From: Candidatus Yanofskybacteria bacterium RIFCSPLOWO2_01_FULL_39_28 | GTDB taxonomy: Bacteria > Patescibacteriota > Minisyncoccia > 2-02-FULL-40-12 > GWA2-44-9 | Direction of reading: 5' to 3' | Length of the DNA stretch: 64,000 nucleotides | NCBI GenBank assembly: GCA_001794635.1 | Contig: MGKE01000002.1 | Location: 13,921 to 77,920, forward strand | Shown: in pieces, positions 30,161-59,933 of the stretch | How the letters are laid out: each line of letters opens with the position of its first letter | Numbering within the stretch: the first letter of the stretch is position 1 | Notes under the pieces: generated by a model | What the model saw: only the letters and a program-made list of their open reading frames with translations | Databases searched by the model: none | What the model was told of the DNA's origin: nothing | Position numbers and translations under genes: made by a program

Positions 30161-30162
30161 TT

Positions 30163-40046: not shown

Positions 40047-40111
40047 TTCGGACTCCTTATAAAAGTTCTGAATATAGGATACATTAAATTATTAAAAAGT
40101 CTAGCTTAAAA

Positions 40112-40136
40112 TTAAAACACCGCTTTTAGCGGTGTT
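40112..40136 (-). terminator. Intrinsic terminator after 40176..42329
   Basis: On the minus strand, AACACCGC-TAAA-GCGGTGTT is followed by TTAATTTT. Confidence 0.6.
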
Positions 40137-40175
40137 ATTGTGCTTTTAACTTTTTATTTTTAACTTTTAACTTGT

Positions 40176-42329: not shown

Positions 42330-42360
42330 ATAACCTCATTTTTAACGAGCTTTGCTGATT

Positions 42361-42389
42361 TTTATAACATAATATTTATAGCATGTAAA
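42361..42389 (-). promoter_or_regulatory. Sigma70-like promoter for 40176..42329
   Basis: On the minus strand, TTTACA-N17-TATAAA, followed by the AATCAGCAAAGCTCGTTAAAAATGAGG leader. Confidence 0.45.
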
Positions 42390-42422
42390 CAAAACCCCTA
42401 AGAGGAATTAACCTCTTAGGGG
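42386..42422 (-). terminator. Intrinsic terminator at the stop codon of the PhyH gene 42408..43121
   Basis: On the minus strand, CCCCTAAGAGG-TTAATT-CCTCTTAGGGG is followed by TTTTGTTT. Confidence 0.8.
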
Positions 42423-44989: not shown

Positions 44990-45028
44990 TAATTACCCCC
45001 CTGTTTTTAATGAACTAAGATTGAAATT

Positions 45029-45057
45029 ATAATATAATATTACGTAAAAATGTCCAA
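45029..45057 (-). promoter_or_regulatory. Sigma70-like promoter for 43121..44989
   Basis: On the minus strand, TTGGAC-N17-TATTAT, followed by the AGTTCATTAAAAACAGGGGGG leader. Confidence 0.45.
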
Positions 45058-45062
45058 TTATA

Positions 45063-45089
45063 ATAAAAAGGCCCCATTGTGTTGGGGCA
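45063..45089 (-). terminator. Intrinsic terminator after the PhyH gene 45098..45838
   Basis: On the minus strand, GCCCCA-ACACAA-TGGGGC is followed by CTTTTTATT. Confidence 0.7.
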
Positions 45090-45097
45090 GGATTGAT

Positions 45098-45838
45098 CTA
45101 AAGCTCATATCGCAAAGGTCTTACCGAAATTTCTTTTCTTTCAGCGGTTTTTCCTGGCAAGAAGTTCGGCTGTTGGCTTATTCCTTTTGCGCCGTAAGGC
45201 ATAAGGACCATTGGACGGTCGCGATCTGAACTTTTATTGGGGTACGAACCATGAGCGACATTTCCGTGAAGGATTAATAACGATCCCTTTTTCATGGGTA
45301 TATCAACCCGCTCATAATTAAGCGGCAAGTTTTTGGATAGATCATGTCCGGGGTTTTGACCCGTTGTCTGTTCGTGCCAGCTTTTAAATAATTCAGCGGG
45401 CAGGAGCGGTTCTAAATGAGAGCCTGGATATATAAACATACAACCATTTTCTTTATCTTGGTCTGCGAGAGGAATGTTCGCGGTTACATACATGCCGTGA
45501 GGCGCCCGAGCATAAGCGTTATCCTGATGAGGATTCCATGCTTGTGATGATCCGGCTTTCTTGAAAAGAAAAATACATTGGAGGCCGATGGTTTCAGCGT
45601 CTAGAAGGGCGTCCAAAATCATGATAATCTTGTAGTAACACATAAGGTGCCTGATTCGGTAGTCTTCTCTGTCCAGGTTCATTATCCCTTTATACTCGGG
45701 ATCTATTTTTGGTGCATATTCGTTAAATATTGCATATATTCTATCGCACTGTTCATTGTTTAATATCTCAGGAATTATTAAGTAGCCGTTTTTTCTGTAG
45801 GAAACAATCTGGTCTCTGGTAAGAAGAAAGTTTTCCAT
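45098..45838 (-). CDS. PhyH-family Fe(II)/2-oxoglutarate dioxygenase (paralogue)
   Basis: GYLIIPEIL, WNPHQDNAY (HxD) and GNVAHGSYPN. Confidence 0.85.
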   Translation of the reverse strand: MENFLLTRDQIVSYRKNGYLIIPEILNNEQCDRIYAIFNEYAPKIDPEYKGIMNLDREDYRIRHLMCYYKIIMILDALLDAETIGLQCIFLFKKAGSSQAWNPHQDNAYARAPHGMYVTANIPLADQDKENGCMFIYPGSHLEPLLPAELFKSWHEQTTGQNPGHDLSKNLPLNYERVDIPMKKGSLLILHGNVAHGSYPNKSSDRDRPMVLMPYGAKGISQQPNFLPGKTAERKEISVRPLRYEL

Positions 45839-45885
45839 TTTTACCTCATTTTTTATGTGCTAGTTAATAAATTGCACTATTTTTT

Positions 45886-46695
45886 TCAAATTTGCAAGTC
45901 TTTCAATTCTTTAAGCACTTCTTCAGCAATCTCAAGTGTGCTTTTATTAAAGCCAGTTGATACACTTCTAATTTTATCGGTGTTCATTCGGTGAACGTTA
46001 TGAATAAAACTGCCGAATTTTGGCTGACTGCCTAATGCTTCGGCGATTTCTCTCAGAGTGGCATTTTGTGTGGAACCGGCGTTAAATATTCCGGTGATGT
46101 TTTGGGTCAAAGCTAGTTCTATAAATTCTTTTATTTGAGACATACTAACAAGATTAAAACTAGATTCAGGGCTTAAGGTAAGGGGGCTTGGATCGTGGCA
46201 CAGGATTTTCATTATGTTAGTGGCTGGTCTTGTTGTAGGGCCGACTATTGAGACGCAACGTAGAATGAGTGGCGATTTGGAATTCTGGAGTACCACTTGT
46301 TCTGCTAATAACTTGAATAGTCCATAAAGATAATAGGTATGATGAACTGGGCAAGAGGTCTCTGGAAAATTTGGTACATCCGTTTCTTTACTTTCGCGAT
46401 ATGGGTCTGGATAAACTGCTGGCGATGAAATGTAAACGAATAAGCCGTGGGGGATTTGAGTTAATTGTTTCGTTAGCTCAATATTTGACTGGTAGTAAGG
46501 CCATAAGTCATTCGGCGGTATAACATTGCGGGTATCGGCGGCGCAGTGAACTATGGCATCGTAATAGTTTTGGCCATGACGATTTATTTCGTTTTTCAAG
46601 TTAGCCCGGTAAAAAGGCTTGCCTCGTAATCCACCCAGTAAATATTGGCCCAAACCGGATGATGTTCCGGTTACAAGGAACTTTGGTTTTGTCAT
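45886..46695 (-). CDS. NAD(P)-binding Rossmann protein (atypical extended SDR), paralogue A
   Basis: FLVTGTSSGLGQYL glycine-rich motif. About 60% identical to 47805..48596. Confidence 0.6.
   Translation of the reverse strand: MTKPKFLVTGTSSGLGQYLLGGLRGKPFYRANLKNEINRHGQNYYDAIVHCAADTRNVIPPNDLWPYYQSNIELTKQLTQIPHGLFVYISSPAVYPDPYRESKETDVPNFPETSCPVHHTYYLYGLFKLLAEQVVLQNSKSPLILRCVSIVGPTTRPATNIMKILCHDPSPLTLSPESSFNLVSMSQIKEFIELALTQNITGIFNAGSTQNATLREIAEALGSQPKFGSFIHNVHRMNTDKIRSVSTGFNKSTLEIAEEVLKELKDLQI
46082..46169. repeat. 88-bp tract identical to 48001..48088
   Basis: Base-by-base comparison found no differences across 88 bp, while the flanking paralogous sequence is clearly diverged. Confidence 0.85.
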
Positions 46696-46769
46696 CTGAA
46701 CCCTTTTTAAAGGAGCTTTGGTGTTTTTATAACATGGTTTTTTGGTTTAGGCAAATAAAAACCAGCATC

Positions 46770-47726
46770 TTATTGCGGGTTGTAATTTTGGCGATACCAG
46801 TCAATGGTTTTTAAGATTCCTTCGGTCAAACCAATGCGAGCTTTCCAATCAAGAAGTTTACGTGCTTTTTCAACATCTATGCTAATACGCGAGCCTATAG
46901 TCGGTTTTTCAAGATCGTATACGACTTTAATGTTTTTACCGAAGCAGGCGATTATGGTTTGTACCAATTCATTGACTGAATAGGTTCTTCCAAGACCAAC
47001 ATTAAATATCTCAAAGTTATTTTTTTGGAAATCAATAGCTTTTTTAATAAATTCAACCTGGTCATCAATATATAGTAAATCTCTAGTTTCGGTACCCGAT
47101 CCCCAAACAGTGATGTCGTGCTCTGCTTGCATTACTTTTACGATTGTAGCGGCAAGAACATGGCCGCGAGTTAAATCAAATTTATCATGCGGACCATAAA
47201 TATTCGTATGCCGTACGACGGTGTATTTGGTTGAACCTAAGCAGGCATAATAACAGCACTGTTCCTCTCCTGAAATCTTCATTTCCGCCGATCTGGCATA
47301 TGTCGGATGGATTCTTTTTATATCAATGCCGTCTTCGGTTAAAGGAGTGTCGCTTGAGGGATACATTATCGTACAACTCAGAAAAACAAAATGCCTTGCC
47401 TTATTGAGGTGGGCTGCCTCAATCAAATTAGAATTGATTAAGCCGTTTGCTTCAGCATTAGCTCTGGCGCTTTCTTCTTTGGAGAATACTCCTATACCGG
47501 AGATCTGGCCCGCAGCATTAATAATTATGTCCATGTCTTTTGTTGTTCGTAATGCTGTTTCCTCATTTTTTAAATCGGCTTGCACTATTCTGGAATTGGA
47601 AATCTGGGGTTTATTTTTCAAATAAGTTCCGTAAACCTCGTAATTGTTGAATGAACTAAAGTATTCAAATAAGTTGCGGCCAATAAATCCGCTTGCTCCG
47701 CAGATCATTATTCTGGTTTTTTTCAT
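46770..47726 (-). CDS. Fcl-family NAD(P)-dependent sugar epimerase/reductase
   Basis: IMICGASGFIGRNL, NIYGPHDKFDLTRGHVLAATI and TVWGSGTETRDLLYIDD. Confidence 0.7.
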   Translation of the reverse strand: MKKTRIMICGASGFIGRNLFEYFSSFNNYEVYGTYLKNKPQISNSRIVQADLKNEETALRTTKDMDIIINAAGQISGIGVFSKEESARANAEANGLINSNLIEAAHLNKARHFVFLSCTIMYPSSDTPLTEDGIDIKRIHPTYARSAEMKISGEEQCCYYACLGSTKYTVVRHTNIYGPHDKFDLTRGHVLAATIVKVMQAEHDITVWGSGTETRDLLYIDDQVEFIKKAIDFQKNNFEIFNVGLGRTYSVNELVQTIIACFGKNIKVVYDLEKPTIGSRISIDVEKARKLLDWKARIGLTEGILKTIDWYRQNYNPQ

Positions 47727-47763
47727 TTTGATGTCTTTTGTGATGTAAATGAACTTGGTAAAG

Positions 47764-47792
47764 ATGATAAACTAAAAAAAATCTTAAGTCAA
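47764..47792 (-). promoter_or_regulatory. Sigma70-like promoter for 46770..47726
   Basis: On the minus strand, TTGACT-N17-TATCAT. The leader contains AAGTTCATTTACA. Confidence 0.5.
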
Positions 47793-47818
47793 CAAAAAAG
47801 AGGCTTATACCTCTTTTG
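47793..47818 (-). terminator. Intrinsic terminator at the stop codon of 47805..48596
   Basis: On the minus strand, AAAAGAGG-TATAAG-CCTCTTTT is followed by TT. Confidence 0.6.
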
Positions 47819-48596
47819 TTGATAATCTTTCAGCTTCAATTTTTGCTATTTCAAGAGTGCTTTTGTTGAAATCTATAGAAATTTCTCTGATCTTTCTGGT
47901 ATCCATCTGGGGTACATTAAAGGTGAAATTACCGAATTTTGGTTGGCTACCCACGGCTTTGGCTATTTCTCCAAGTGTCGCGTTTTGGGTGGAACCGGCA
48001 TTAAATATTCCGGTGATGTTTTGGGTCAAAGCTAGTTCTATAAATTCTTTTATTTGAGACATACTAACAAGATTAAAACTAGATTCAGTGCTTAAGGTGA
48101 GTTGGGTTGGGTCATTTCGGAGTATTCTGGCAATGTTTGTCGGCCTGCTTGTCGGCCCGACAATTGTTACGCAGCGAAGAATCAGGGATGAGCGTGTGTT
48201 CTGGCTGACCATTTTTTCGGTTAGAAGTTTGAATAGTCCATAAAGTCCGTAGAGGGGCGGGTCGTGGGGCAGGGTAATAATATCGGATTCGGAATTTAAT
48301 CGGTACAGGTCAGGATATACAGCGGACGAAGAGATGAATACGAATAAGTGGTGAGGAATTTGGAGCAATTGTTTCGTAAGTTCTATGTGCGACTGATAAT
48401 ATGTCAATAATTCATCTGACGTGATACTGTTTCTGGCATCAGTTGCGCAATGGATAATACAATCATAGAAAGTATTTTTGTGGCGGACTATTTCCAGGGG
48501 ATCTATTCTTTGGAAAGGTACGGCTCCAAGCTCTTTGACCAAATAGCGGCCAAGGCCGGATGAAGTTCCAGAAATAAGAATTTTAGCCTTGTTCAT
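47805..48596 (-). CDS. NAD(P)-binding Rossmann protein (atypical extended SDR), paralogue B
   Basis: ILISGTSSGLGRYL. Shares the 88-bp identical tract with 45886..46695. Confidence 0.6.
   Translation of the reverse strand: MNKAKILISGTSSGLGRYLVKELGAVPFQRIDPLEIVRHKNTFYDCIIHCATDARNSITSDELLTYYQSHIELTKQLLQIPHHLFVFISSSAVYPDLYRLNSESDIITLPHDPPLYGLYGLFKLLTEKMVSQNTRSSLILRCVTIVGPTSRPTNIARILRNDPTQLTLSTESSFNLVSMSQIKEFIELALTQNITGIFNAGSTQNATLGEIAKAVGSQPKFGNFTFNVPQMDTRKIREISIDFNKSTLEIAKIEAERLSTKEV
48001..48088. repeat. 88-bp tract identical to 46082..46169
   Basis: See the partner feature at 46082..46169. The tract encodes SSFNLVSMSQIKEFIELALTQNITGIFNAG. Confidence 0.85.
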
Positions 48597-48597: not shown

Positions 48598-49404
48598 TTA
48601 CAACCCTCTTGTTATTCCTCCGTCAATATCATAAATGTGTCCGGTTTGAAAATTTGCTTTATCAGATGCAAGATAGACAACGAGGTCGGCCACGTTTTCT
48701 AGCGTACCCATTCTGCACAGGGGCGACTTTTGGAATTCTTCATAACGCATTAAATGCTCAGCTGCTTCGTAGGTAATTTCTGATCTTTGAGCTCTATCAG
48801 CTACATTTTGTCTCCATATTCCTCCATCCAAAGTGCTTGGGCAGATTGCATTTACCAGAATATTGGCATTGCCCAATTTTGTGGCAAGTTGTTTGGTTAA
48901 GATGTTCAGCGCTGCTTTAAATGAGACATAGTGAGGATTGAAATTGCCGGGTTGATGGGAGGACAAGCTGGAAATATTTATAATCCTTCCTTGTTTTGAA
49001 GCCGTTAAGTATGGTAATGACGCTCTGATAAATCGGACGGCGCTCATAAAAGTTAGATTGTAACAACTTAGCCAGTCTTCGTCGGATAGATCGGTGAAAT
49101 CGCCAAATTTTTCTAAGTGGCCGGCGTTATTGACCAGGATATCCAGTTTGCCTATTGCGGCAACGGGACCAAGTTCAAAAAAACTGTTTATTTTATCGTT
49201 ATCTGTAACATCAACCGGACAGGCCCATGTTTGCACACGGTATTTGTCTGATATTTCCTTCATGGTTTTTATTACAGCTTTTTCGTGACGGCCGTTAATT
49301 ATGACTTCAACACCTTCTTGGGCCAGAGCCAGTGCGATAGCTTTGCCTAGTCCATGGGTTGAACCAGTGACAAGAGCTAGTCGTCCTCTAAGGTTTAAAT
49401 CCAT
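48598..49404 (-). CDS. Classical short-chain dehydrogenase/reductase (FabG-like)
   Basis: LVTGSTHGLGKAIA, NNAG and YVSFKAAL (YxxxK). Confidence 0.85.
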   Translation of the reverse strand: MDLNLRGRLALVTGSTHGLGKAIALALAQEGVEVIINGRHEKAVIKTMKEISDKYRVQTWACPVDVTDNDKINSFFELGPVAAIGKLDILVNNAGHLEKFGDFTDLSDEDWLSCYNLTFMSAVRFIRASLPYLTASKQGRIINISSLSSHQPGNFNPHYVSFKAALNILTKQLATKLGNANILVNAICPSTLDGGIWRQNVADRAQRSEITYEAAEHLMRYEEFQKSPLCRMGTLENVADLVVYLASDKANFQTGHIYDIDGGITRGL

Positions 49405-49465: not shown

Positions 49466-49500
49466 GCAAAATAATAACCTCACAATTATTGTGAGGTTAT
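49466..49500 (-). terminator. Intrinsic terminator at the stop codon of 49497..50456
   Basis: Perfect 13-bp stem, ATAACCTCACAAT / ATTGTGAGGTTAT, followed by ATTATTTTG on the minus strand. Confidence 0.7.
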
Positions 49501-50456
49501 GTCCTGACTGTTTTTCGGCAATGTTCCAGAAGATATTCAACGCTTTCTTCAATAGTATAACGCGGTTGCCAGCCGGTTTGGGCGGTGAATTTTGATGTGT
49601 CCGGTATTTGTAAAGTTACGTCAGCTGGTCTTAATAATTCCTTGTTCAAGCGCGATGGAATTGGACAGGAAGCTTTTTGTTTCAAGATTTCAAGAAATTC
49701 CCCCACAGTCATAGTCGTTGAACCGCCGATATTATATACTTCTCCAGGTATGCATTTTTCTATGGCCACCCAATAAGCTTCCATAGCGTCACGGCTGTCT
49801 ATAAGAGTTCTGACAGAATCAAGGTTTCCATGCACAAGCTCTTTTTGAAGTCCGGCTTCAATGCGAGCTACTTGGAGAGCGAATGCGGTAGCAAAGAGAT
49901 CGCTTCGCCGCGGGTTAATATAAGTGAACATCCTTGTTGTTATGATGGGAATGCCAAAACTTCGGTAATATACATAACCCAAATGATCTTGAAAAGTTTT
50001 AGAGACAGCGTATGGGCTGGATGGCTTTATCGGACAATCTTCTTTGATCGGTACATTCTTCGGATCAACTTGGCCATATACTTCCGATGTGCTGCAAAGC
50101 TGTATTCTTGGTGTTATTCCGGCAGTTCTTACCGCTTCCAAAAAGTTTGCTGTACCCATGACATTGTTTTCTATCACAGCTAATGGAATATCAAAGGATT
50201 CTCTAACATTGGCATGAGAAGCAAGGTGGAAAATGTAATCAGGATTTATCGCGTTTAAGACTTTGAGTATTGAGCTAAAGTCCTTCAAATCACATGCATG
50301 AACATGAACTTCGTTTTTTGTTTGAGAAAGATTTCTGGACGTGTGCCATCGGCCAGCGCCGTGAATTTCGCATTCGGGGTGATTCGCGACAATGAAATCT
50401 GTAAGATAACTGGCTCCAGAACCGTGGATGCCGGTTATTAATATTTTTTTACCCAT
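49497..50456 (-). CDS. gmd: GDP-mannose 4,6-dehydratase-like enzyme
   Basis: ILITGIHGSGASYL, STSEVYG, PYAVSK and NPRRSDLFATAFALQVARIEAGLQKELVHGNLDSVRTLIDSRD parallel Gmd motifs (HESPRRG..FVTRKI..A.I..G......GNLDA.RDW). The substrate could instead be a GDP-heptose. Confidence 0.65.
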   Translation of the reverse strand: MGKKILITGIHGSGASYLTDFIVANHPECEIHGAGRWHTSRNLSQTKNEVHVHACDLKDFSSILKVLNAINPDYIFHLASHANVRESFDIPLAVIENNVMGTANFLEAVRTAGITPRIQLCSTSEVYGQVDPKNVPIKEDCPIKPSSPYAVSKTFQDHLGYVYYRSFGIPIITTRMFTYINPRRSDLFATAFALQVARIEAGLQKELVHGNLDSVRTLIDSRDAMEAYWVAIEKCIPGEVYNIGGSTTMTVGEFLEILKQKASCPIPSRLNKELLRPADVTLQIPDTSKFTAQTGWQPRYTIEESVEYLLEHCRKTVRT

Positions 50457-51412
50457 TATACATCCCCCTCTTCGGATAAAATTTGGCGGATTTTGTAATA
50501 ATGATTAATTGTTCTTTTTAATCCAGTTTCTAAGTCAGTTTTTGCTTTGAAGCCGAACTCAGTGGCATTAGTAATATCTAAAGATTGACGTAGTTGGCCG
50601 ACCGGTTTAGATGTATCCCAATTGATTGCGCCTTTGTATCCAAGGATTTGGCAGATTGTGTTGGCCAACTCTTTGATGGTCGTTTCTTTGCCAGTTCCTA
50701 TGTTAATTGGTTTTGTCTCATTGTAATTTTCAGTTGCCAGAACTACAGCTTCAGCTGCGTCTTCAACGTAAAGGAATTCGCGACTTGGCGTTCCATCGCC
50801 CCAGACATCTATGTTCTGGCTGTTGGTTTCAAGAGCGTTTACTATCTTAACGATAAGCGCTCCGGTTACATGGGACTTTGTCGGATCAAAGCTGTTTCCT
50901 GGGCCATATAAATTAGAAAGCATAAGGTGAACAGAATTAAAACCGTATTGTTTGCGGTAAGCTTCGCCTTGAACAATAAGCGCTCTTTTAGCTATGGCAT
51001 AAGGCGCATTTAATTCCTCCGGATAGCCATCCCAAAGACTTTGTTCTTTTAATGGCATTGGAGCGTTTTTGGGATATTCGCATATACTGCCAATTATTAC
51101 GAACTTTTTGACTCCGGCTTGGTAAGCAGCTTTCATAAGGTTTATTCCCATGGAAGCGTTATCGTCAAAAATTTCTGCTGAATGGGCAGGATTATGTCCT
51201 ATACCGTAACCATTAACGGCGCAATGTATAACGAAATCATGGTTTGGCATTATTTCTTGGCAAACCTCTAGGCGCCGCAGATCATTGTTTTTAGAACGGG
51301 GGATAGTGATATCTTTTTCCAAAACCCCATGTTTTATTAATCTGTTCTTCACGTGCTGGCCTAAAAATCCAGCTCCGCCGGTTAGTAAAACACGAGCACC
51401 GCTTATGCTCAT
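50456..51412 (-). CDS. GDP-L-fucose synthase / GDP-L-colitose synthase-like epimerase-reductase
   Basis: VLLTGGAGFLG, PYAIAKRAL, SNLYGPGNSFDPTKSHVTGALI and DVWGDGTPSREFLYVEDAA closely follow Fcl motifs. I chose the ATG at 51412 because the track start at 51514 runs into the foldback repeat and crosses the promoter. Confidence 0.75.
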   Translation of the reverse strand: MSISGARVLLTGGAGFLGQHVKNRLIKHGVLEKDITIPRSKNNDLRRLEVCQEIMPNHDFVIHCAVNGYGIGHNPAHSAEIFDDNASMGINLMKAAYQAGVKKFVIIGSICEYPKNAPMPLKEQSLWDGYPEELNAPYAIAKRALIVQGEAYRKQYGFNSVHLMLSNLYGPGNSFDPTKSHVTGALIVKIVNALETNSQNIDVWGDGTPSREFLYVEDAAEAVVLATENYNETKPINIGTGKETTIKELANTICQILGYKGAINWDTSKPVGQLRQSLDITNATEFGFKAKTDLETGLKRTINHYYKIRQILSEEGDV

Positions 51413-51449
51413 AACTAATCCCCTTCTATTTACAAAGAACCTTGGTGAA

Positions 51450-51477
51450 ATTATATATAAAAAACGTGATAAGTCAA
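51450..51477 (-). promoter_or_regulatory. Near-consensus sigma70 promoter for 50456..51412
   Basis: On the minus strand, TTGACT-N16-TATAAT lies about 37 nt upstream of GGGGATTAGTT-ATG. Confidence 0.6.
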
Positions 51478-51490
51478 CCGAATAATCGCG

Positions 51491-51784
51491 CGTGGTGCTA
51501 ATCAAAATCCTCACAAGAGCTTGATTTCTGGGGCACGGCGTAAATTTCTGCTGAAATTTCGCCTTTTACTCGGTTCAGCCAACCTCCGTAAATCCCCATA
51601 AATCAACTCTTATGAGGATTTAGTCTTTACCTGTGTCTATATCAATTAATCTGGTCAGTATAGTAGGTATTTTGAGGGATTTACGGACCGCGACGGCGGG
51701 AGTAAAAGACAAAATTCTAGCAAGAATTTATGTCGTGCCCGAAAAATACCTGCTATGCTGACCAGATGGTAATTAGCACTATAT
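51491..51784 (+). repeat. Foldback repeat element, copy 2 (candidate structured ncRNA or MITE)
   Basis: Positions 51494-51620 match 11209-11335 at 125 of 127 positions. Termini pair (GGTGCTAAT / ATTAGCACT). About 81 nt shorter than copy 1. Confidence 0.8.
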
Positions 51785-51798
51785 GCTACTATCAATTA

Positions 51799-51821
51799 AA
51801 AAGAGCCCAAAGGGCTCTTTT
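51799..51821. terminator. Bidirectional intrinsic terminator at the stop codon of 51820..52755
   Basis: AAAGAGCCC-AAA-GGGCTCTTT with T runs on both strands. Confidence 0.75.
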
Positions 51822-52755
51822 ATAAATTCGTATAGCTATTGTTCCTGACTATTCGATAGCCTTTAATAAGTTCTTCAATTCCTTCCTGTAGGGAAACTCG
51901 TGGTTTAAAACCCATTGCTTCAATCTTAGCATTGCTGACTATGTAATTTCGTTTATCGGGGTCTTCGCCAACCTCGGCCTCGGTAAAATAGAAGTCAGGC
52001 ACCTTCTTTTTTATTTCCTGACAGAGTTCTAGTTTGGATAAATTAGCATCGCTTAAGCCGACATTATAGGCGTTATTTTTCATAGAATCAAAATTGTTTA
52101 TACAATGCAGGAAGGCCCTTACAACGTCTCGGACATGAATATAGTTTCTCTTGAAATTAGCTTGAAACAACACAATAAAGCGATCATTAACTGCTCTATA
52201 TACAAAGTCGTTGACGAGAAGGTCTAGGCGCATTCTGGGGCTTATCCCAAATACAGTTGCCAGGCGCAAAGATATTGAATTACCACTGTTAAGAATTTCT
52301 TTTTCGGCCTCAACTTTCAAACGGCCATACAAAGATACTGGTTTTAATGGTGATTCTTCTGTGCAAAAAATACCTTCTTGGCCTATACCGTACCCGCTAT
52401 TCGTGTTAGGAAAAAGCAGGGGCTGATTTCTTGTTCTTGCGGTTAGAATAGTTTTGACCGGGTCAAGATTTATTGTTTTAGCTGCGAAGGGGTCTCTATC
52501 ACAAGCTGGAGCGCCGACTATACAGGCGAGATGAATAATAATGTCTGACTGCCTGACCAGACTTGCCAAAAGGTCTTTGTTTCTGACGTCTTCATTAATA
52601 ACTCTCAACGACTGACTATGGCAGCAGTCAAGCAATGTATTTTGTTTATACAGGAAATTGTCTAGAACAATAACTTCGTGGTTAGCCTGTAAAAGTGTCG
52701 GTACAAGAACGGATCCAATATAACCAGCTCCGCCAGTGACAAGAATTCTGGACAT
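51820..52755 (-). CDS. NAD-dependent sugar epimerase/dehydratase
   Basis: ILVTGGAGYIGSVL and YGRLK (YxxxK). TAATG overlap with the upstream dehydratase gene. Confidence 0.75.
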   Translation of the reverse strand: MSRILVTGGAGYIGSVLVPTLLQANHEVIVLDNFLYKQNTLLDCCHSQSLRVINEDVRNKDLLASLVRQSDIIIHLACIVGAPACDRDPFAAKTINLDPVKTILTARTRNQPLLFPNTNSGYGIGQEGIFCTEESPLKPVSLYGRLKVEAEKEILNSGNSISLRLATVFGISPRMRLDLLVNDFVYRAVNDRFIVLFQANFKRNYIHVRDVVRAFLHCINNFDSMKNNAYNVGLSDANLSKLELCQEIKKKVPDFYFTEAEVGEDPDKRNYIVSNAKIEAMGFKPRVSLQEGIEELIKGYRIVRNNSYTNL

Positions 52756-53945
52756 TACTTTTCTCCTTTTCTGAAATCCAGAGCTGCTTTTATGGTCGCA
52801 TTACAAATACATTCAACATCAGCTTCGTTTAGTTTCGGATAATTTGGCAGGAAAAATCCGCATTCATAAAATCTTGTTGCGTTTTTGCCGTTAAACTTCT
52901 CATATTCTTTAAACCAATATGGCTGCAGTCCCTGATTGCCGGAAGTAAAAGGCCTTGTCTCAATCCCGTTTTCTTCAAGGGCAGAAGTAATAAAGTTTCT
53001 TTCGGCCTCATTCTCGGCTAAGGCGCAGAAGTGAATACTGCAAACAGTAGAAGCTTTATCAAATGTTTGGAGTCCAAAGTAATTTTGGAGCAGTGTTTTA
53101 TAAAGAAGGTGGTTAGCAAATCTTCGTTCAATAAGCCAGTCCATTCGGTCAATCTGTCTCAAACCTATAAAAGCATGATCGTCTGACAATCTGAAGTTAT
53201 ATCCGGCATAAGGGAACACAAAACCTGTCCCGATGTCCTTTATTTTGTACATATCCAAATATCTCTTGCGTGCTTCAGGGCTAAGGCCGTTTATCCAGCC
53301 ATGGCTTCTTAACATGAAAATAATTTCATTTAGTTCTGGATCGTCAGTTGAAACCATTCCGCCTTCAACAGTAGAAAACTGATGGCCGAAGTAAGTGGAA
53401 ATACTGGCCATATCGCCAAAGGTGCCGACTTTACGGCCACAATAGGACGAACCCATTGCTGCGCAAGCATCTTCAAGAAGGAAGAAACCGTATTCTTCTT
53501 TAAGTTCCATGACTCTGTCCATATGCGACGGAACGCCTAAAACCTGAACCAGCATTACAGTTGACGGCGAATACTCACACAGCAATTCTTCAAGGTGAGT
53601 AATATCCAATCCAAAGTTATCCTTGTCAGATTCGCACATAATTGGTTCGTATCCTAGCTGCATAAAAGGAGCAACACTGGTAACCCAAGCGGCGCTTGGA
53701 ACAATGACTCTTGTGTTTTTAAGACGTTCGGATTCATAAAGCGTTGCGGCCATTAAGAGATTAGCCGATGAGCCAGAATTACAAGCTACCGAATACCTTC
53801 TTCCTAACCAGTTTGACCATTTACTCTCATATTCTTTGACTAGGGACCCCATGGTTAGTCTCGGATTGGTCATAAGCCATTTTCCACGGGCAATGTTATC
53901 TTCGGCCGTAATCGTGTCGGCTACGAGAGGGTACTTATAAGTCAT
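52755..53945 (-). CDS. colD: PLP/PMP-dependent sugar 3-dehydratase of the ColD / E1 type (DegT fold, Lys replaced by His)
   Basis: N-terminal PLVADTITAEDNIARGKWLMTNPRLTMGSLVKEYE. STYFGHQFSTVEGG aligns with FSFHPVKSITTGEGG of the aminotransferase at 34528..35664, placing His188 (codon 53382-53384) where the lysine would be. The 396-aa length and the Gmd/Fcl neighbours favour ColD over CDP-type E1. Confidence 0.7.
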   Translation of the reverse strand: MTYKYPLVADTITAEDNIARGKWLMTNPRLTMGSLVKEYESKWSNWLGRRYSVACNSGSSANLLMAATLYESERLKNTRVIVPSAAWVTSVAPFMQLGYEPIMCESDKDNFGLDITHLEELLCEYSPSTVMLVQVLGVPSHMDRVMELKEEYGFFLLEDACAAMGSSYCGRKVGTFGDMASISTYFGHQFSTVEGGMVSTDDPELNEIIFMLRSHGWINGLSPEARKRYLDMYKIKDIGTGFVFPYAGYNFRLSDDHAFIGLRQIDRMDWLIERRFANHLLYKTLLQNYFGLQTFDKASTVCSIHFCALAENEAERNFITSALEENGIETRPFTSGNQGLQPYWFKEYEKFNGKNATRFYECGFFLPNYPKLNEADVECICNATIKAALDFRKGEK

Positions 53946-54049
53946 TTCTCAATTCTCCTGGTTTTTAAAAAACTCATGTAAACAACATAATCTAAAATTA
54001 AATTTAGTCAATCTTTACTAATAATAAAAAACCATCATAATCATGATGG

Positions 54050-55099
54050 TTAAAATGGGCCCTTGAACTTATTTTCGTAAGTATGAAATTTTTCGTTTGA
54101 CAGATCAGTCTTTGAAAGACCCAACATTTTCTCTGTTTCCCTGATGATTGTTACGGCGTTGGGATAGAAAAGATTTTCTAATGGCCTCGTTGTTGGACAC
54201 GGCGTCCAGGCAAATCCAATGCGTGAAGCTGGCTTCTTTAGTTGATTAAAACATTGGTTAGAAACTCTTGCCGCCACTTCAGCGCTGAATCCGCAATTAA
54301 GCCAGTCGTAGTCGGCTATAATACAATGTCCGGTTTTGTTTACAGAATTAATTATGGTCTGATCATCCAATGGCGAGATTGTCCTTGGATCTATAATTTC
54401 CATGCTTATACCTTTTTTTGCTAGAACATTGGCCGCATCATGAGCTTCTACATTAATCCAAGAAGTGGCTACTACGGTTATGTCTTTACCCTCTCTTAAA
54501 ACTCGGCTTTGTCCGATGGGTATTGTGTAAGGTAATTCGGGAACGTGACCCTCGGTCCAATAGAGCCATCGGTGCAGAAGACAAACGACTATATTGTTAT
54601 CTCTTATTGCTGAGATCATCAGACCCTTCATATCGTAAGGGGTAGACGGCATTATTACTTTTAATCCAGGAATATGGGCAAATATGCTCTGCATACTTTT
54701 AGAGTGTTGAAATCCTTGTCCCCAGCCCCTGCCAATCATAGCGATTATTACTAAAGGTGCGGAAAGTTTACCATTGCTTCCATATCTAAGAGAGTTGCCG
54801 ATATTGACTAGCTGATTTAGCGTAAGAAGCAAAAACTCAACTCTAATGTGAATGTTGATAGGTACTAATCCGGTAGCGCTTGCCCCTATGCCAAAGCCCA
54901 ATGACGAATCTTCAGAGAGGGGGGTGCTGAAACATCTATTTGGTCCGAATTTCTCTACCAATCCTGCCGTAGTGCCGACAATTCGTTTATGATCGGCAAC
55001 ATCAAGACCGTAAACAAAAACTCTATCATCTCTGGTCATTTCTTGGGTAATTGCCTCGTTTACGGCTTTTTCGTAAGAAATAATCCTACTCTCCATCAT
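54050..55099 (-). CDS. ThDP-dependent dehydrogenase E1 beta subunit
   Basis: Transketolase-like pyrimidine-binding region (FSTPLSEDSSLGFGIGASATG) and C-terminal domain. Confidence 0.85.
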   Translation of the reverse strand: MMESRIISYEKAVNEAITQEMTRDDRVFVYGLDVADHKRIVGTTAGLVEKFGPNRCFSTPLSEDSSLGFGIGASATGLVPINIHIRVEFLLLTLNQLVNIGNSLRYGSNGKLSAPLVIIAMIGRGWGQGFQHSKSMQSIFAHIPGLKVIMPSTPYDMKGLMISAIRDNNIVVCLLHRWLYWTEGHVPELPYTIPIGQSRVLREGKDITVVATSWINVEAHDAANVLAKKGISMEIIDPRTISPLDDQTIINSVNKTGHCIIADYDWLNCGFSAEVAARVSNQCFNQLKKPASRIGFAWTPCPTTRPLENLFYPNAVTIIRETEKMLGLSKTDLSNEKFHTYENKFKGPF

Positions 55100-56042
55100 A
55101 AACTCCTTTATAAAGCTCTTCTGGTTCGGGATATGGCGCCGCTTTTGCTAAATCAACGGCTGTTTTTATTTGAGCCATTACTTCGTTTTCAACATCTTCA
55201 ACTTCTTTCTTAAAACCGGCTTCTATTAATTTCTGTTTCTGAATTTTAATAGGATCTTTTTTATACCATTCCAAAAATTCATTTTTATCGCGATAGTTGG
55301 AATTAAAATCCTCGTTAACGCCGACATGTTCCAAATATCTATAATATTTTAACGACAGGAAAACAGGACCCGATTCTAAGTATTTAATAGAAGACCTGGT
55401 GATATTGTGTATTTTTTCAACATCTGTTCCGTCATATTCTTGTATGTACTGGAACCGATATTGCCTCATGATATTTGTCAGATTTTTATATCCACGTCGT
55501 ATTGCAGTTGATGCATGGATTGCCAAACCATTATCTTCACAAACAAATATTACCGGCAGTTGCCAGAGACAGGCCATATTTACACTCTCCCAAAAAGCGC
55601 CTTCATCGGTTGCCCCATCGCCAAAAAATACAACATTAATCTTATCATCATCTAAAATTTTACTTGAGAAAGCTGCTCCCAGGGCAAGGGGAATACTTGT
55701 AGCAACTACAGCAGAGGTCATCATTACGCCCTTGTCCGGATTAGCCAGGTGCATTGAACCGGCTTTACCTCCGCCAGGGCCGGTAACTTTACCGTAAAGT
55801 TCAGCAAAAAACCCATTAACATCTTCGGTCCGGGCAAGATATATGGCATGGCTTCTATATGTACCCCAGACTTGGGCTTTGTCACCGATGGCGGTCAAAA
55901 CTCCGACAGCAATTGCTTCTTCGCCCATGGACATATGCATTGGCGTTTTCATTTCATCTTTAGGATACTCTCGGCAGATTTCTGCCTCAGCTTCCCTGAT
56001 AAGATACATTTTTTTGTAAAGGTTCAGAAGCAAATTCGGCAT
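55086..56042 (-). CDS. ThDP-dependent dehydrogenase E1 alpha subunit
   Basis: ThDP motif FGDGATDEGAFWESVNMACLWQLPVIFVCEDNGLAI. Overlaps the beta gene by 14 nt. Confidence 0.85.
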   Translation of the reverse strand: MPNLLLNLYKKMYLIREAEAEICREYPKDEMKTPMHMSMGEEAIAVGVLTAIGDKAQVWGTYRSHAIYLARTEDVNGFFAELYGKVTGPGGGKAGSMHLANPDKGVMMTSAVVATSIPLALGAAFSSKILDDDKINVVFFGDGATDEGAFWESVNMACLWQLPVIFVCEDNGLAIHASTAIRRGYKNLTNIMRQYRFQYIQEYDGTDVEKIHNITRSSIKYLESGPVFLSLKYYRYLEHVGVNEDFNSNYRDKNEFLEWYKKDPIKIQKQKLIEAGFKKEVEDVENEVMAQIKTAVDLAKAAPYPEPEELYKGVYDGE

Positions 56043-56087: not shown

Positions 56088-56726
56088 TTATGTCAAAATT
56101 TTTAAGAGCTGCTGAAAATTTGTTGATATGTGATCAGGTTTTAATGAGGTAAGCAATTTTTTATTGTGGAAACCCCAAGTAACGGCTACTGTTTTAAGTC
56201 TAACTTTTTTAGCCGCTTTAATGTCTCCAACCGTATCAGTAACGAAGAAAGTTTTTTCAGGCGCAACATGATACTGGTTAAGAATCTCTTTTATCATAGC
56301 TTCTTTGGAATTGGTAGAATCAGCTAATATTAAGCCAAAACAACCTTCTATTCCGTTTTCTTTTAGAATATTCTTAATGTTTCCTTGTTTGCCGTAAGAG
56401 GCAATCGTCAGTATGTATTTTGCGCTTATTTTTTTAACAAATTCAGTAGTTTCGGGAAAAAGTTTAGCTTTTGTTTTTTTATCATAATAATATTTGTCGT
56501 AATTAGCGCTTCGGAATTCTTTGAAAATTAAATATGTTTCTTCGTTATTTATAAAATCCTTGAAGCCCTGGTGAACATTGCCAATAAAAAGTTTCCTGTA
56601 TTGATCAGGTTTAAAGGGCAGACCTATATGATTCATACTGTTTTTTATAAGCGGATAAAAAGTATCAAAAGTATCGGCCAAAACGCCATCAAAATCAAAA
56701 ATTATAAGATTTTTATTTTTCTTCAT
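56088..56726 (-). CDS. HAD-superfamily phosphatase
   Basis: LIIFDFDGVLADT (DxDxT motif I). I prefer the ATG at 56726 over the track start at 56774. Confidence 0.8.
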   Translation of the reverse strand: MKKNKNLIIFDFDGVLADTFDTFYPLIKNSMNHIGLPFKPDQYRKLFIGNVHQGFKDFINNEETYLIFKEFRSANYDKYYYDKKTKAKLFPETTEFVKKISAKYILTIASYGKQGNIKNILKENGIEGCFGLILADSTNSKEAMIKEILNQYHVAPEKTFFVTDTVGDIKAAKKVRLKTVAVTWGFHNKKLLTSLKPDHISTNFQQLLKILT

Positions 56727-57462
56727 AATGCCGACCCAAAAGAAAAACACAGACGTTGTTGAATTTACACTCAACTTCTTTGAGTTCTTCTATACTCATG
56801 GCATAAGGCGGTAGATATTTTCTAGATTCTTGTGTGCCGCCGGATACCATAGAACCGCTAGTCAATATGGCAAGTTCAAAATGATTTGTATTTATAGACC
56901 TTATATCCTTTAGGTTGTTAATCAGTTTTATGCAGGCCTTTTTGGTGCCGAGATTATTTATTTTGCCGAAATCTTTTTTGGCCAACCTAATTCTTGATTT
57001 ATCAACTGTCATTTCTTTCCTGTCCTCGTATCCTTTTTGGGCTCGGCCGTATTTATCTTCAAGCCGGAAAAGATCATGTTTCATGGGCGGAGTCTCAAAT
57101 TCTAAAACCTTTGTTCCAGCCGAAGATAAGCTTTGAGTGGAGTGGAATGTGCCGGGCGCTATTATAACTGTATCCAAAGGATGAAGTTCAATGGATTCAT
57201 TCAAAGAGGAAAACAAGGCTCGGCCTTCCAGAACAACCAAAGCGGTTTTTTTGGCTGGATGGCAATGCATTGAGGTAGATCTTTGATGACTGATAGACAG
57301 ATGCCATATTTCAGCCTCTGGATTTTTAAACATCAAATACTCGCAACCCCAAGGTTTGTTAACTATAACATTATCAAAATTTGCTTTAATTGGAGTTGGT
57401 TTATATGGTTGGAGAGAGAAGTATTTTTTATCTAACTCGGTTGGCCCAATTCTTTTTATCAT
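56713..57462 (-). CDS. Cupin-domain protein (type II phosphomannose-isomerase-like cupin) with an uncharacterised C-terminal half
   Basis: VNKPWGCEYLMF and SMHCHPAKKTALVVLEG cupin motifs. Confidence 0.55.
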   Translation of the reverse strand: MIKRIGPTELDKKYFSLQPYKPTPIKANFDNVIVNKPWGCEYLMFKNPEAEIWHLSISHQRSTSMHCHPAKKTALVVLEGRALFSSLNESIELHPLDTVIIAPGTFHSTQSLSSAGTKVLEFETPPMKHDLFRLEDKYGRAQKGYEDRKEMTVDKSRIRLAKKDFGKINNLGTKKACIKLINNLKDIRSINTNHFELAILTSGSMVSGGTQESRKYLPPYAMSIEELKEVECKFNNVCVFLLGRHYEEK

Positions 57463-57476
57463 ATTATAACTATAAA

Positions 57477-58022
57477 CTATTTAAATTTGGAAAATATCGC
57501 CTTCATTAAATCAGTCACATCTCTTGGGTGTCTGGCAGTAACAATATTGCCGTCAATAACCGCTGGTTTATCGGTATAAATAGCCCCGGCGTTATTGATA
57601 TCGTCTTTTATGCCAATATAGCCGGCAATCTTTTTACCCCTTACTATTCCAGCTGAAATCAATACCCATGGACCATGGCAGAAAGCCGCTACGATCTTTT
57701 TTTGTTTATTCATTTTGCGTATAAATTCTAATATTTCTGGAACTTGTCTCATTCTGTCCGGTGCCTCAAATCCGCCCGGTATTAATACCAAATCATAACT
57801 ATCAGGATTTAATTTTTTAGCGTCAACAAGAGTACCATAGTAGCGGACAATTAGTTCAAGAGGGAAGTTAAGCCGGCCCAAGACTGGTTTGGCGTCTTTT
57901 GTGGCAATATCAACCACAAAACCTTCCTCCTTTAAGCGGATTACGGGATAAATAACTTCTTCGTCTTCAAACCCTTCGGCGGTTATGACCACTGCTTTTA
58001 GTTGTTTGTTGTTTTTAGACAT
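57477..58022 (-). CDS. DJ-1/PfpI-family protein
   Basis: Nucleophile-elbow motif AAFCHGPWVL and the LIPGG region. I prefer the ATG at 58022 over the track start at 58064. Confidence 0.8.
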   Translation of the reverse strand: MSKNNKQLKAVVITAEGFEDEEVIYPVIRLKEEGFVVDIATKDAKPVLGRLNFPLELIVRYYGTLVDAKKLNPDSYDLVLIPGGFEAPDRMRQVPEILEFIRKMNKQKKIVAAFCHGPWVLISAGIVRGKKIAGYIGIKDDINNAGAIYTDKPAVIDGNIVTARHPRDVTDLMKAIFSKFK

Positions 58023-58080
58023 GACAAAAATATAGCAGATATTTGATAAAAGTAAAACCGCCAAATAATGGCGGTGATTA

Positions 58081-58986
58081 CTACTTACTACTTACTACTT
58101 TTTTGACGTATTCACATATTCTTTCTGATGACGGTGGGGGATTGTCCAGATGCGCTGCAAACCCAGAAGTTCTTTCTTCAAGGCCGATGACACGGGCCTT
58201 TTTATCCGTTTGATGCATTAATTCATAGGCAATGCATTTTGAATAGCCATCTTCAAAATCCATATCTACAATTAAGGCGCCGCAGCGAGACATTCTTATT
58301 GCGTTTAAGGCGTCAGGTTGTATTAGCAAGGGTTTAAGCCAGACGAGGTGGATTAAATTGCAAACAATTCCTTGTTTTTCAAGTATTCTTATTGCTTCCA
58401 GAGCGCTTAGGCGGGTTACAGAAATGGCTAAGATTGTAATATCAGCATCGGGCTTAATGATGTTTTCCATTTCATAATCTATCGCAAAACATTTTTTACA
58501 CTCGCTGACATATAACGGCCCATAATGGGTTCTGGAGTACTCCCAGGCAGATTCATACTCTTTAGGCGTTACCGGCGCGCAAACGGGGAATTTTGGCACT
58601 CTCGTTATAATGCCATGATGTGCTCCGCCAGCAACTGGTCCGGCGCCAAGTTCATGAGCTATAGATCTGATAAAAATTCTAATTTTATATCCCCACATTT
58701 CTTCTGCTTTTGCCCCAAAATTAATAAAATCGGTAGAATTATACCACATAAAACCTTGATAGCGGCAAATAAATATCGGATCTCGTCCGGCTAAAGCATA
58801 ACCGACAGCAATACCGCAACCACAAGTATCGTCCATTGAGAGTTCTACAAGATTAGGATGGCCAGGCAATTCAGGAATTGTTCCTCCGACCCAACCAACA
58901 GCCGAAAGACACTGACCCATTACCACGCCATTATTTTCGCTCAGATGTTTTCTTGTGATTTCACGAATCGTTTCAGCGGAAGTCAT
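58081..58986 (-). CDS. Divergent ThDP-enzyme E1 beta-like subunit
   Basis: Pyrimidine-binding-type region (SMDDTCGCGIAVGYALAG) and C-terminal domain. The ATG at 58986 makes an ATGA overlap with the alpha-gene stop. Confidence 0.65.
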   Translation of the reverse strand: MTSAETIREITRKHLSENNGVVMGQCLSAVGWVGGTIPELPGHPNLVELSMDDTCGCGIAVGYALAGRDPIFICRYQGFMWYNSTDFINFGAKAEEMWGYKIRIFIRSIAHELGAGPVAGGAHHGIITRVPKFPVCAPVTPKEYESAWEYSRTHYGPLYVSECKKCFAIDYEMENIIKPDADITILAISVTRLSALEAIRILEKQGIVCNLIHLVWLKPLLIQPDALNAIRMSRCGALIVDMDFEDGYSKCIAYELMHQTDKKARVIGLEERTSGFAAHLDNPPPSSERICEYVKKVVSSK

Positions 58987-59933
58987 ACACGCTCCTTTAT
59001 TGGGGACAAGACATCTTCCCATAAATTTTCAATGTAATGAGCTGTGGAATTTTCAATCATTTCAACTTCTGATTTTAAGCCGAGGAATATCAATTGAGTT
59101 TTAACCAGTTCATATCTGTTCCACTCGGGTGGACCATCGCAACCAGGACCTTCGTGCCAAAGTTCGCGGCAGTAATGAATATTTAAAAACGCCGGAAGCT
59201 TATCCTTTAATTTAGTAACGCAATCCATTATAAACCAAGGGTCGTCAGGCACATCATAAGCCGGCATGCCTTTGGCTTTGGCTTCGTCAGACATGGTCCA
59301 GCTTCGACGAACCTTAACTTCGGTTAAAATAGAAAGGTTATTATCCATGCAAACAAACAATGTCGGAGCTTTTTTACTTGCTGCTTCGCCTAGAGCCCCA
59401 AGGACATAACCTTCTTCTGCGCTGGCATCTCCCATGACGATCAAGGTCTTAAGACCTGAACCAAGGGCATATCCTACGCCGATTTTTACTTGTGTACCCA
59501 TGTGGCCGTCATGACCGAACATGCCAGTTTCGGGAGAATGAATTGATGCTGATCCGCCCATGCCGCCGGCGCAACCGATCGGAAGACCAAGGAGTTCGTC
59601 TCTTAACTTTTCCGGCGAAGCCCCGTAGCAAAGATATAAGTCGTGGCATCTGTGCTGTCCAAAACGTGGAACAAAAGAAGGCCAAGTCATGGTATCCGGG
59701 AAAGACAACGATATAGCCGAGGTGGCAGATTCTTGTCCGAGAGAAAGATAGGTAAAAATTCTGGGTATCTTCTTTCCACTGATTGCTCTTTTGACATTGA
59801 GTTCAAAGTTGCGGCAGAGGCATATTCTACGAAACAGTTCCAGCGATACTTCTTTAGAAAAAGTTTTGGCAAGATCTTTTGGTCCCTTGAATTTGGCTAA
59901 ACGCATTTCAACTCCTTTTAAAACAACTTGCAA
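58983..59933 (-). CDS. Divergent ThDP-enzyme E1 alpha-like subunit
   Basis: ThDP motif MGDASAEEGYVLGALGEAASKKAPTLFVCMDNNLSI. Confidence 0.7.
   Translation of the reverse strand: MQVVLKGVEMRLAKFKGPKDLAKTFSKEVSLELFRRICLCRNFELNVKRAISGKKIPRIFTYLSLGQESATSAISLSFPDTMTWPSFVPRFGQHRCHDLYLCYGASPEKLRDELLGLPIGCAGGMGGSASIHSPETGMFGHDGHMGTQVKIGVGYALGSGLKTLIVMGDASAEEGYVLGALGEAASKKAPTLFVCMDNNLSILTEVKVRRSWTMSDEAKAKGMPAYDVPDDPWFIMDCVTKLKDKLPAFLNIHYCRELWHEGPGCDGPPEWNRYELVKTQLIFLGLKSEVEMIENSTAHYIENLWEDVLSPIKERV

Follow-up and report, generated by a model that had tools for sequence, protein, structure and literature searches.

What is a pair of genes for the alpha and beta subunits of an E1-type, thiamine diphosphate (ThDP)-dependent enzyme doing among the genes of a sugar-modifying operon? 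The question is raised by the interval 49497-56042 of a 64,000-nucleotide stretch of contig MGKE01000002.1 from Candidatus Yanofskybacteria bacterium RIFCSPLOWO2_01_FULL_39_28 (the whole stretch is hereafter called the window). A first-pass annotation had read this interval as a GDP-mannose-based route to a 3,6-dideoxyhexose, joined to an E1 pair that would place a carbon branch on the 4-keto intermediate. The open reading frames (ORFs) that it relied on are all present on the minus strand, at the positions given below, and five genes were described, whereas a sixth, encoding a short-chain dehydrogenase/reductase (SDR) of 311 amino acids (aa) at 51820-52755, was passed over. We regard the interval as the heart of an operon for the tailoring of nucleotide sugars, in a bacterium of the candidate-phyla-radiation type. 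From homology and gene context, which underlie all functions proposed here, we suggest that the most likely product of the operon is a C4-branched, 3-deoxy heptose destined for an envelope glycan. We would give the full mechanism a probability of about one in two.

Sugar-modifying genes occupy the minus strand in one long run, which extends from about 39 kb to the end of the window. In the core of this run, the genes for E1 alpha (55086..56042, 318 aa, ThDP-binding) and E1 beta (54050..55099, 349 aa) overlap by 14 nucleotides (nt) and lie directly upstream of the gene for a predicted ColD-type, pyridoxamine phosphate (PMP)-dependent sugar 3-dehydratase (52755..53945, 396 aa). The last base of the latter is the first base of the overlooked gene (51820..52755), whose product is a predicted Cj1427-like C4-dehydrogenase of nucleoside diphosphate (NDP)-heptoses. 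Three genes for SDRs follow on the same strand: one of the Fcl/ColC-like type (GDP-fucose-synthase family, 50456..51514), one of the GMD/RMD family (49497..50456, 319 aa), called Gmd in the first-pass annotation and possibly a dehydratase or a reductase, and one of the classical FabG-like type (48598..49404, 268 aa; PF13561 and PF00106), a candidate reductase of the acetyl branch. A gene for an HddA-like GHMP kinase (327 aa) is found at 59977..60960, also on the minus strand.

In the scheme that we favor, the Cj1427-like enzyme would oxidise C4 of an NDP-heptose, with 2-oxoglutarate serving as oxidant. The ColD-like enzyme, using His188 as catalytic base, would eliminate the 3-hydroxyl group through a PMP ketimine and regenerate PMP from glutamate, releasing 2-oxoglutarate and ammonia. 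The 2-oxoglutarate freed in this step could be reused in the Cj1427-like step, closing a cofactor loop. The E1 alpha/beta heterotetramer would decarboxylate pyruvate on ThDP, and the hydroxyethyl-ThDP carbanion would add to the C4 ketone to give a 4-C-acetyl tertiary alcohol; such a C4 acetylation would be the reaction of the alpha-KADH2 class of enzymes and of YerE. The Fcl-like, GMD/RMD-like and FabG-like reductases would set the stereochemistry, by reduction or epimerisation, and reduce the branch to a 1-hydroxyethyl group. PhyH dioxygenases and B12 radical S-adenosylmethionine (SAM) enzymes encoded downstream would possibly hydroxylate and C-methylate the sugar.

E1 alpha, the subunit that we propose to activate the donor for C-acetyl branching of the sugar, gives a strong match to PF00676 (3.7e-55), and E1 beta matches PF02779 and PF02780; both subunits fall below the pyruvate dehydrogenase cutoffs of NCBIfam, with 252 bits for E1 alpha on TIGR03182 (cutoff 394) and, for E1 beta, 269 bits on PRK09212 (cutoff 321) and 252 bits on a second family model (cutoff 454). 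The best match of E1 beta in the PDB is 1um9_B (4e-61). E1 alpha is 30% identical to human PDHA1, as opposed to 37-64% (median 51%) to 75 homologues from sugar loci. Judged by sequence, the pair belongs to a distinct group, set apart from pyruvate dehydrogenase.

These homologues come from a scan of one genome per species, which yielded 80 loci with an E1 alpha homologue at 37-64% identity (designated by L numbers); apart from a few, they lie on metagenome-assembled genomes or single-cell assemblies. ORFs were called in all of them and clustered into families. The loci span about 14 phyla, including Patescibacteria, Omnitrophota, Planctomycetota, Chloroflexota, Desulfobacterota, Proteobacteria, Acidobacteriota, Elusimicrobia, Marinimicrobia and a bin labelled Nanoarchaeota, and synteny with sugar enzymes is conserved across them. 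In 71 of the 80, the E1 alpha gene is followed by one for E1 beta. The families that recur with the pair are GMD/RMD-family SDRs (60 loci), Fcl-like SDRs (54), HddA-like kinases (39), RmlC-like epimerases (38), FabG-like SDRs (29), methyltransferase-like proteins (28), the N and C parts of a split transketolase (26 and 21), aldo-keto reductases (16), nucleotidyltransferases (15) and GmhA-like SIS proteins (14). Neither the catalytic motif of E2 (DHRxxDG) nor the redox-disulfide motif of E3 was found in the 2751 ORFs called within 10 kb of the pair at the 80 related loci, or anywhere in the 64-kb window.

What usually occurs beside the pair is an enzyme that could provide it with a ketone. In 35 of 74 loci, the gene next upstream of E1 alpha is a member of the GMD/RMD family, and in 42 of 74 such a gene is no more than two genes away; 52 of the 61 members of the family are at least 40% identical (mostly 44-49%) to the GDP-heptose 4,6-dehydratase 7us5. 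The Cj1427-like gene is present in nine loci, in eight of them together with a ColD-like gene, adjoining the E1 pair; it is found in none of the 52 loci with a 7us5-like 4,6-dehydratase. This mutual exclusion suggests that Cj1427-like and 7us5-like enzymes are two alternative sources of one 4-keto substrate. That the E1 pair lies beside one or the other of these C4-ketone-forming enzymes, and never beside both, is as expected if the ketone is its substrate. Furthermore, the dehydratase-type His replaces the Schiff-base Lys in 17 of 19 DegT-family proteins of the related loci. The presence of such proteins near E1 pairs recalls the logic of YerE, in which 3-deoxygenation beside the ketone precedes carbon addition. 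Comparative genomics thus lends support to the earlier suggestion that the pair has a 4-keto nucleotide sugar as its substrate and is not part of a dehydrogenase complex: E2/E3 motifs are missing from these loci and the window, the pair usually adjoins a 4-keto-forming enzyme and His-type DegT proteins are strongly enriched nearby. These proteins include a second, distant His-type subfamily, 21-31% identical to the window protein (L002, L004, L007, L008, L013, L017, L028 and L051), which occurs in loci with a typical 4,6-dehydratase.

The 396-aa dehydratase candidate of the window belongs to the DegT/DnrJ/EryC1 family (PF01041, 4.4e-69, covering residues 15-383). The Lys-to-His substitution that had drawn attention to it is real: residue 188 is His in STYFGHQFSTVEGG (codon CAT, 53384-53382), and in a MAFFT alignment it faces the Lys of an aminotransferase encoded elsewhere in the window, at 34528-35664 (FSFHPVKSITTGEGG). 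In the HMMER alignment, the same column holds H in wild-type ColD (2gms), N in 3b8x and K in 2r0t, the last two of which we take to be the ColD mutants H188N and H188K. ColD is the best PDB match (2gms, 8e-47, 163 bits), followed by the Fe-S-containing CDP-sugar dehydrase known as E1 (5e-35, 125 bits); true aminotransferases score at most 111 bits. The protein thus does not group with the latter, as ColD and the E1 dehydrase both outscore them. Among NCBIfam models, RfbH scores highest, with 189 bits for a cutoff of 423. The [2Fe-2S] motif of the E1 (RfbH/DdhC) dehydrase subtype is C-X57-C-X-C-X7-C, and a regular-expression search did not find it in the 396-aa protein. His188 is kept in all 11 close orthologues found. 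Score rank and His conservation therefore agree with the view of the protein as a predicted 3-dehydratase, and specifically one of the ColD type.

It is at the level of the sugar that our interpretation departs from the earlier one. The Cj1427-like protein aligns with PDB entry 6vo6 over 308 residues without gaps (1.4e-115, 389 bits, 55% identity). We take this entry to be Cj1427 of Campylobacter jejuni, a GDP-heptose C4-dehydrogenase (Huddleston et al. 2020). The PDB title of 6VO6 reads only "putative sugar-nucleotide epimerase/dehydratase". Cj1427 reoxidises its bound NADH with 2-oxoglutarate (PMC10680097) and, together with the HS:5 C3-dehydratase, 2-oxoglutarate, pyridoxal phosphate and glutamate, gives GDP-D-glycero-3-deoxy-4-keto-heptose in vitro (PMC10680097). 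The C4-dehydrogenase candidate is probably the enzyme that makes the 4-keto group in the window. Of possible heptose supply genes (GmhA, HddA, GmhB, HddC), the window itself offers only the HddA-like kinase and a generic HAD. The closest relative found, L081, has an E1 alpha that is 72% identical; its locus holds a GmhA (216 bits, equivalog cutoff 209) and a GmhB-like phosphatase, and its contiguous order is ABC, 650-aa membrane protein, GHMP kinase, E1 alpha, E1 beta, ColD-like, Cj1427-like, GMD/RMD-like SDR. The kinase (80% identical to that of the window) stands directly before E1 alpha, and genes of the SDR269, SDR318 and SDR323 types are syntenic as well. Because of the Cj1427-like gene, the HddA-like kinase and the GmhA/GmhB-like genes of L081, the scaffold is probably a heptose rather than GDP-mannose.

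Several observations weigh against the proposed scheme. The 319-aa SDR is matched almost equally by the GDP-heptose 4,6-dehydratase 7us5 (3e-53, 35% identity) and the Rmd reductase 2pk3 (3e-50, 34%); it fits a dehydratase or a reductase alike, and the "3,6-dideoxy" of the first-pass annotation is therefore not established. A motif does not decide the matter, since S/T-S-E is common to Gmd, the heptose dehydratase and Rmd. Moreover, branching at C4 would face competition from a reductase-like enzyme acting on that carbon. The core genes may not even form a single transcription unit: about 400 bp separate the Cj1427-like and Fcl-like genes, and this gap holds a near-consensus promoter-like site at 51477..51450 (TTGACT, 16 nt, TATAAT) that may split the run in two, although the numbers of promoters and terminators in our scan were no higher than in shuffled sequence. 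The Fcl-like ORF probably starts at Met35, about position 51412, given that its orthologue in L081 (52% identical) has 327 aa. In the supply of the sugar, the kinase finds its best NCBIfam match in HddA at 147 bits, far below the cutoff of 600, and a search of the window with representatives from the related loci found no GmhA and no nucleotidyltransferase of the ManC/HddC or GDP type, only cytidylyltransferase-like genes; both the nucleotide and the sugar are thus deduced from relatives. As to the E1 pair, E1 alpha keeps the GDG...N motif for ThDP and a His aligned with that of YHGHS in human E1 alpha, and E1 beta keeps a Glu in a TPL(S/A)E segment and a His in an HS(K/Q/D)S segment, presumably the ThDP-activating Glu and an active-site His. 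Loss of dehydrogenase residues, which might have set the pair apart, can be discarded and, with all of these residues intact, the sequence is compatible with a dehydrogenase role. Finally, the window encodes two further E1-type enzymes (see below), making it uncertain which of the three acts on which intermediate.

Among the alternatives, the one that survives best retains the first half of the scheme and changes the second. The ColD/Cj1427 module would make a 3-deoxy or 3,6-dideoxy heptose that is reduced by SDRs, while the E1 pair performs another ThDP reaction in the glycan pathway. One could envision extension or cleavage of a sugar chain, the use of a longer 2-oxo acid as donor, or the provision of an acyl or hydroxyethyl group that ends up as an O- or N-substituent. 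The several C4-reductase-like SDRs of the window would be at home in such a pathway, as would its NeuB-type synthases, which make 2-oxo sugar acids; many related loci hold a second ThDP system, in the form of a split transketolase or a tandem E1 pair, which hints at more than a single acetyl branch; and YerE-like enzymes do accept long, functionalised 2-oxo acids as donors (PMC9306805). However, the alpha-KADH2 enzymes described so far are reported with C2, pyruvate-derived donors only (PMC12247030), and the tight adjacency of the pair to 4-keto-forming enzymes and His-type dehydratases is what a ketone acceptor would predict. We consider this alternative possible but doubtful.

Less likely still is the colitose-type route originally put forward, in which Gmd, ColD and a ColC-like enzyme would convert GDP-mannose into a GDP-4-keto-3,6-dideoxyhexose and the E1 pair would branch the latter to a yersiniose-like hexose. 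In favor of this route, no solved structure is closer to the DegT protein than ColD of E. coli, the STSEVYG motif is present in the 319-aa SDR, itself a member of the GMD family, and the Fcl-like protein is nearer to true GDP-fucose synthases (8du0, 7e-57; 1bsv, 3e-52) than to the heptose reductases of C. jejuni (about 1e-29), even if it scores 258 bits on NF047922, for a cutoff of 500. But the supposed Gmd reaches just 143 bits on the Gmd equivalog model TIGR01472, whose cutoff is 415, and its best match is the heptose dehydratase, tied with Rmd. ManB and ManC genes are missing from the window, whereas heptose-pathway genes are present in the relatives. Nor does the route leave a role for the Cj1427-like gene that overlaps the ColD-like gene and always accompanies this subtype of SDR: the GMD/RMD-family proteins of the window type, 59-66% identical to the window protein, co-occur with a Cj1427-like gene in seven of seven cases (L003, L007, L042, L049, L050 and L051, besides 49497-50456 of the window). 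Since the window-type SDRs are present only together with a Cj1427-like gene, and the 7us5-like dehydratases never are, the former probably have a role other than making the 4-keto sugar. The GDP-mannose origin is, in our opinion, unlikely, as the window lacks both a Gmd of equivalog level and a gene of the ManC type.

It is highly improbable that the pair is simply the E1 of a pyruvate or acetoin dehydrogenase, placed in a glycan island by chance and served by E2 and E3 encoded elsewhere: its Pfam matches, its retained ThDP motif, Glu and His, and the public annotation of homologues as "acetoin:DCPIP oxidoreductase" or "pyruvate dehydrogenase E1" would fit, but we reject the housekeeping role on context, given the sub-cutoff scores, the lack of E2/E3 motifs within 10 kb at the related loci and in the window, the sugar-enzyme synteny across about 14 phyla and the presence of three E1-type systems in one glycan island, which is not a housekeeping pattern.

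The two additional E1-type systems of the window lie at 16940-18943 on the plus strand and 58081-59933 on the minus strand. The first is a fused alpha-beta protein of 667 aa, adjoining an HldE-like gene of reversed order (15321-16850). The second is an alpha/beta-like pair (58983-59933 and 58081-59022) that is very divergent, with 25% and 22% identity to the main pair. Some of the related loci likewise hold two or three E1-type enzymes, or an E1 pair and a split transketolase. Fused-type pairs occur in tandem just upstream of a main-type pair in L007, L053, L067, L068, L070, L072 and L079. The split transketolase, made of an N part of about 274 aa and a C part of about 319 aa, follows the E1 pair in at least 20 loci, and does so directly after E1 beta in L013, L015, L021, L024, L035, L039, L043 and others. 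A split transketolase behind an E1 pair means that one sugar cassette holds two ThDP systems.

The divergent pair is part of an insertion on the minus strand (56088..59933) that separates the kinase from E1 alpha and also encodes, according to Pfam and NCBIfam, a HAD phosphatase, a cupin and a DJ-1/PfpI protein. The insertion is without counterpart in the 80 related loci or L081 and is lineage-specific. It is seen on the window's own contigs in ENA; the window's own protein was found on metagenome contigs, one of them in the ENA assembly ANAN16-1. The cupin (56713-57462, minus strand, 249 aa), located between the DJ-1/PfpI and HAD genes, was considered as a type II phosphomannose-isomerase-like protein, an idea dropped for want of support from PDB, Pfam or NCBIfam. 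It gives a sub-threshold Pfam match to Cupin_2 only, no NCBIfam or PDB match, and was not found in the 80 related loci.

Downstream of the core, the minus strand (39075..48596) carries tailoring genes for four SDRs, two PhyH-type dioxygenases (42408-43121 and 45098-45838) and two B12-binding radical SAM enzymes, as identified by Pfam. The window has five of the latter in all (7001-8695, 12925-14865, 20161-21741, 40176-42329 and 43121-44989), and a SPASM radical SAM enzyme is encoded at 4660-5883 in the same glycan island. Together, the radical SAM enzymes and PhyH dioxygenases point to heavy C-methylation and hydroxylation of sugars. A set of genes of the nonulosonic-acid type at 28506-35664 (minus strand) includes NeuB, a 618-aa fusion of NeuB with a CMP-transferase and the Lys-type DegT aminotransferase mentioned above, plus a HisH/HisF-like pair and an amidotransferase recognized from the look of their sequences (these were not scanned or gave no Pfam match); the set indicates a second unusual sugar pathway in the island. 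The motif I(I/L)IPTMNRPDF is common to the N-termini of three paralogues, 367-376 aa in length (35661-36764, minus strand; 36837-37967 and 37960-39063, plus strand). The only one of the three to be scanned, 35661-36764, had no Pfam match.

Until now, E1-type C-acetyl branching of sugars has been known from actinomycete antibiotics only, with branching in surface glycans being attributed to YerE-type enzymes (PMC12247030). The locus described here would bring an E1-type branching system into the realm of envelope glycans. Such a system would probably take a heptose as its substrate and be served by a naturally occurring Cj1427/ColD pair, within a cassette that is widespread and uncharacterised. 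Our literature search found no link between E1-type or thiamine enzymes and GDP-heptose or envelope glycans. If the E1 group does branch GDP-heptoses, many uncultured lineages would be seen to use the enzyme class for their primary envelope glycans, branched sugars with nine carbons could be predicted as new compounds, and a reaction obtained from Cj1427 and a C3-dehydratase in vitro only would have a place in nature. Tertiary alcohols could then be made with a large choice of carboligases, and the routine annotation as pyruvate or acetoin dehydrogenase would be corrected in genomes for which annotation is all that metabolic reconstruction has to draw on. It is tempting to go further and speculate, tentatively, on a so far unrecognised pathway for C-branched, higher-carbon, heptose-derived envelope sugars as yet unseen in any glycan, in which E1-type enzymes act on GDP-4-keto-heptoses and the Cj1427/ColD pair is a natural, 2-oxoglutarate-recycling route to GDP-3-deoxy-4-keto-heptose; horizontal transfer would have carried this pathway into about 14 phyla, its hosts ranging from bacteria of the candidate phyla radiation to the Nanoarchaeota-labelled bin. 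In the latter, L042 (JAUYPG010000004.1) holds a full cassette of ColD-like, GMD/RMD-like, Cj1427-like, E1 alpha and E1 beta genes, the result of either a transfer between domains or a binning error.

Several known systems resemble the locus in part. With PdhA/B and AcoA/B, the E1 pair of the window shares the fold, the ThDP motif and the positions of conserved active-site Glu and His residues, but it differs by its identity of about 30%, its sub-cutoff scores and a glycan-operon context in place of one with E2 and E3. The GDP-colitose pathway of Escherichia coli O55 and Yersinia pseudotuberculosis (Gmd, ColD, ColC) has in common with the window a ColD-type dehydratase with His188 and, as a candidate in the window, an Fcl-like epimerase/reductase. 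In contrast, the window has neither an equivalog-level Gmd nor ManB/ManC, and has additional genes for a C4-dehydrogenase and the E1 pair.

The precedents invoked for the branching step are sound: both E1 alpha/beta homologues and YerE add pyruvate-derived C2 branches (PMC4802897, PMC12247030, PMC9306805). The heterodimeric, E1-type alpha-KADH2 enzymes transfer a pyruvate-derived acetyl group onto C3 or C4 ketones of deoxysugars, in the formation of aldgamycin, kosinostatin, kibdelomycin (in vitro), avilamycin, paulomycin and others, with reduction, transamination or some other change of the branch to follow (PMC12247030, PMC4802897, PMC4753412, PMC10338323). Like the window pair, these enzymes (AviB1/AviB2, Plm8/Plm9 = Pau11/Pau12, those of aldgamycin and kosinostatin, KbDH-alpha/beta, EvdU5/EvdS3) are two-gene E1 alpha/beta systems with no E2/E3 partner (in our case, none within the window). 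Their genes lie among those for enzymes that introduce 4-keto groups into NDP-sugars or deoxygenate them, a ketoreductase candidate is encoded nearby, and pyruvate and a C3 or C4 ketone are the expected donor and acceptor in both cases. The likeness is one of gene architecture and context. The known enzymes belong to secondary-metabolite clusters of actinomycetes and act on dTDP- or UDP-linked deoxyhexoses or pentoses, whereas the window pair lies in an envelope-glycan locus of an uncultured lineage, is part of a group found in about 14 phyla and probably acts on a GDP-heptose. A review assigns the branched sugars of lipopolysaccharide to YerE-like enzymes and those of secondary metabolites to E1-type enzymes, and mentions split transketolases, the proposed adders of hydroxyacetyl branches, in Streptomyces only (PMC12247030).

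In its logic, the proposal comes close to the YerE/YerF pathway of yersiniose A (and to ErwE and MygE), in which YerE adds the C2 branch (PMC9306805). There too, PMP-dependent 3-deoxygenation gives a 3-deoxy-4-keto nucleotide sugar, a ThDP-dependent enzyme adds an acyl group at C4, the branch is reduced and the product enters a cell-surface glycan. However, YerE is a single-chain flavoenzyme of the acetolactate-synthase type (DC superfamily) that works on a CDP-hexose, and the 3-deoxygenation of yersiniose relies on E1/E3 with an Fe-S cluster, unlike the ColD-type dehydratase of the window, which is without the Fe-S motif. In its set of enzymes, the window parallels the published GDP-heptose routes of C. 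jejuni (PMC10440746, PMC10680097), which also draw on a Cj1427-like enzyme, a ColD-type C3-dehydratase, a GMD-family SDR, Fcl-like reductases and an HddA-like kinase. No ThDP enzyme takes part in those routes, and C. jejuni pairs its C3-dehydratase with a 4,6-dehydratase; the combination with Cj1427, realized there only in vitro, is here a conserved pair of genes.

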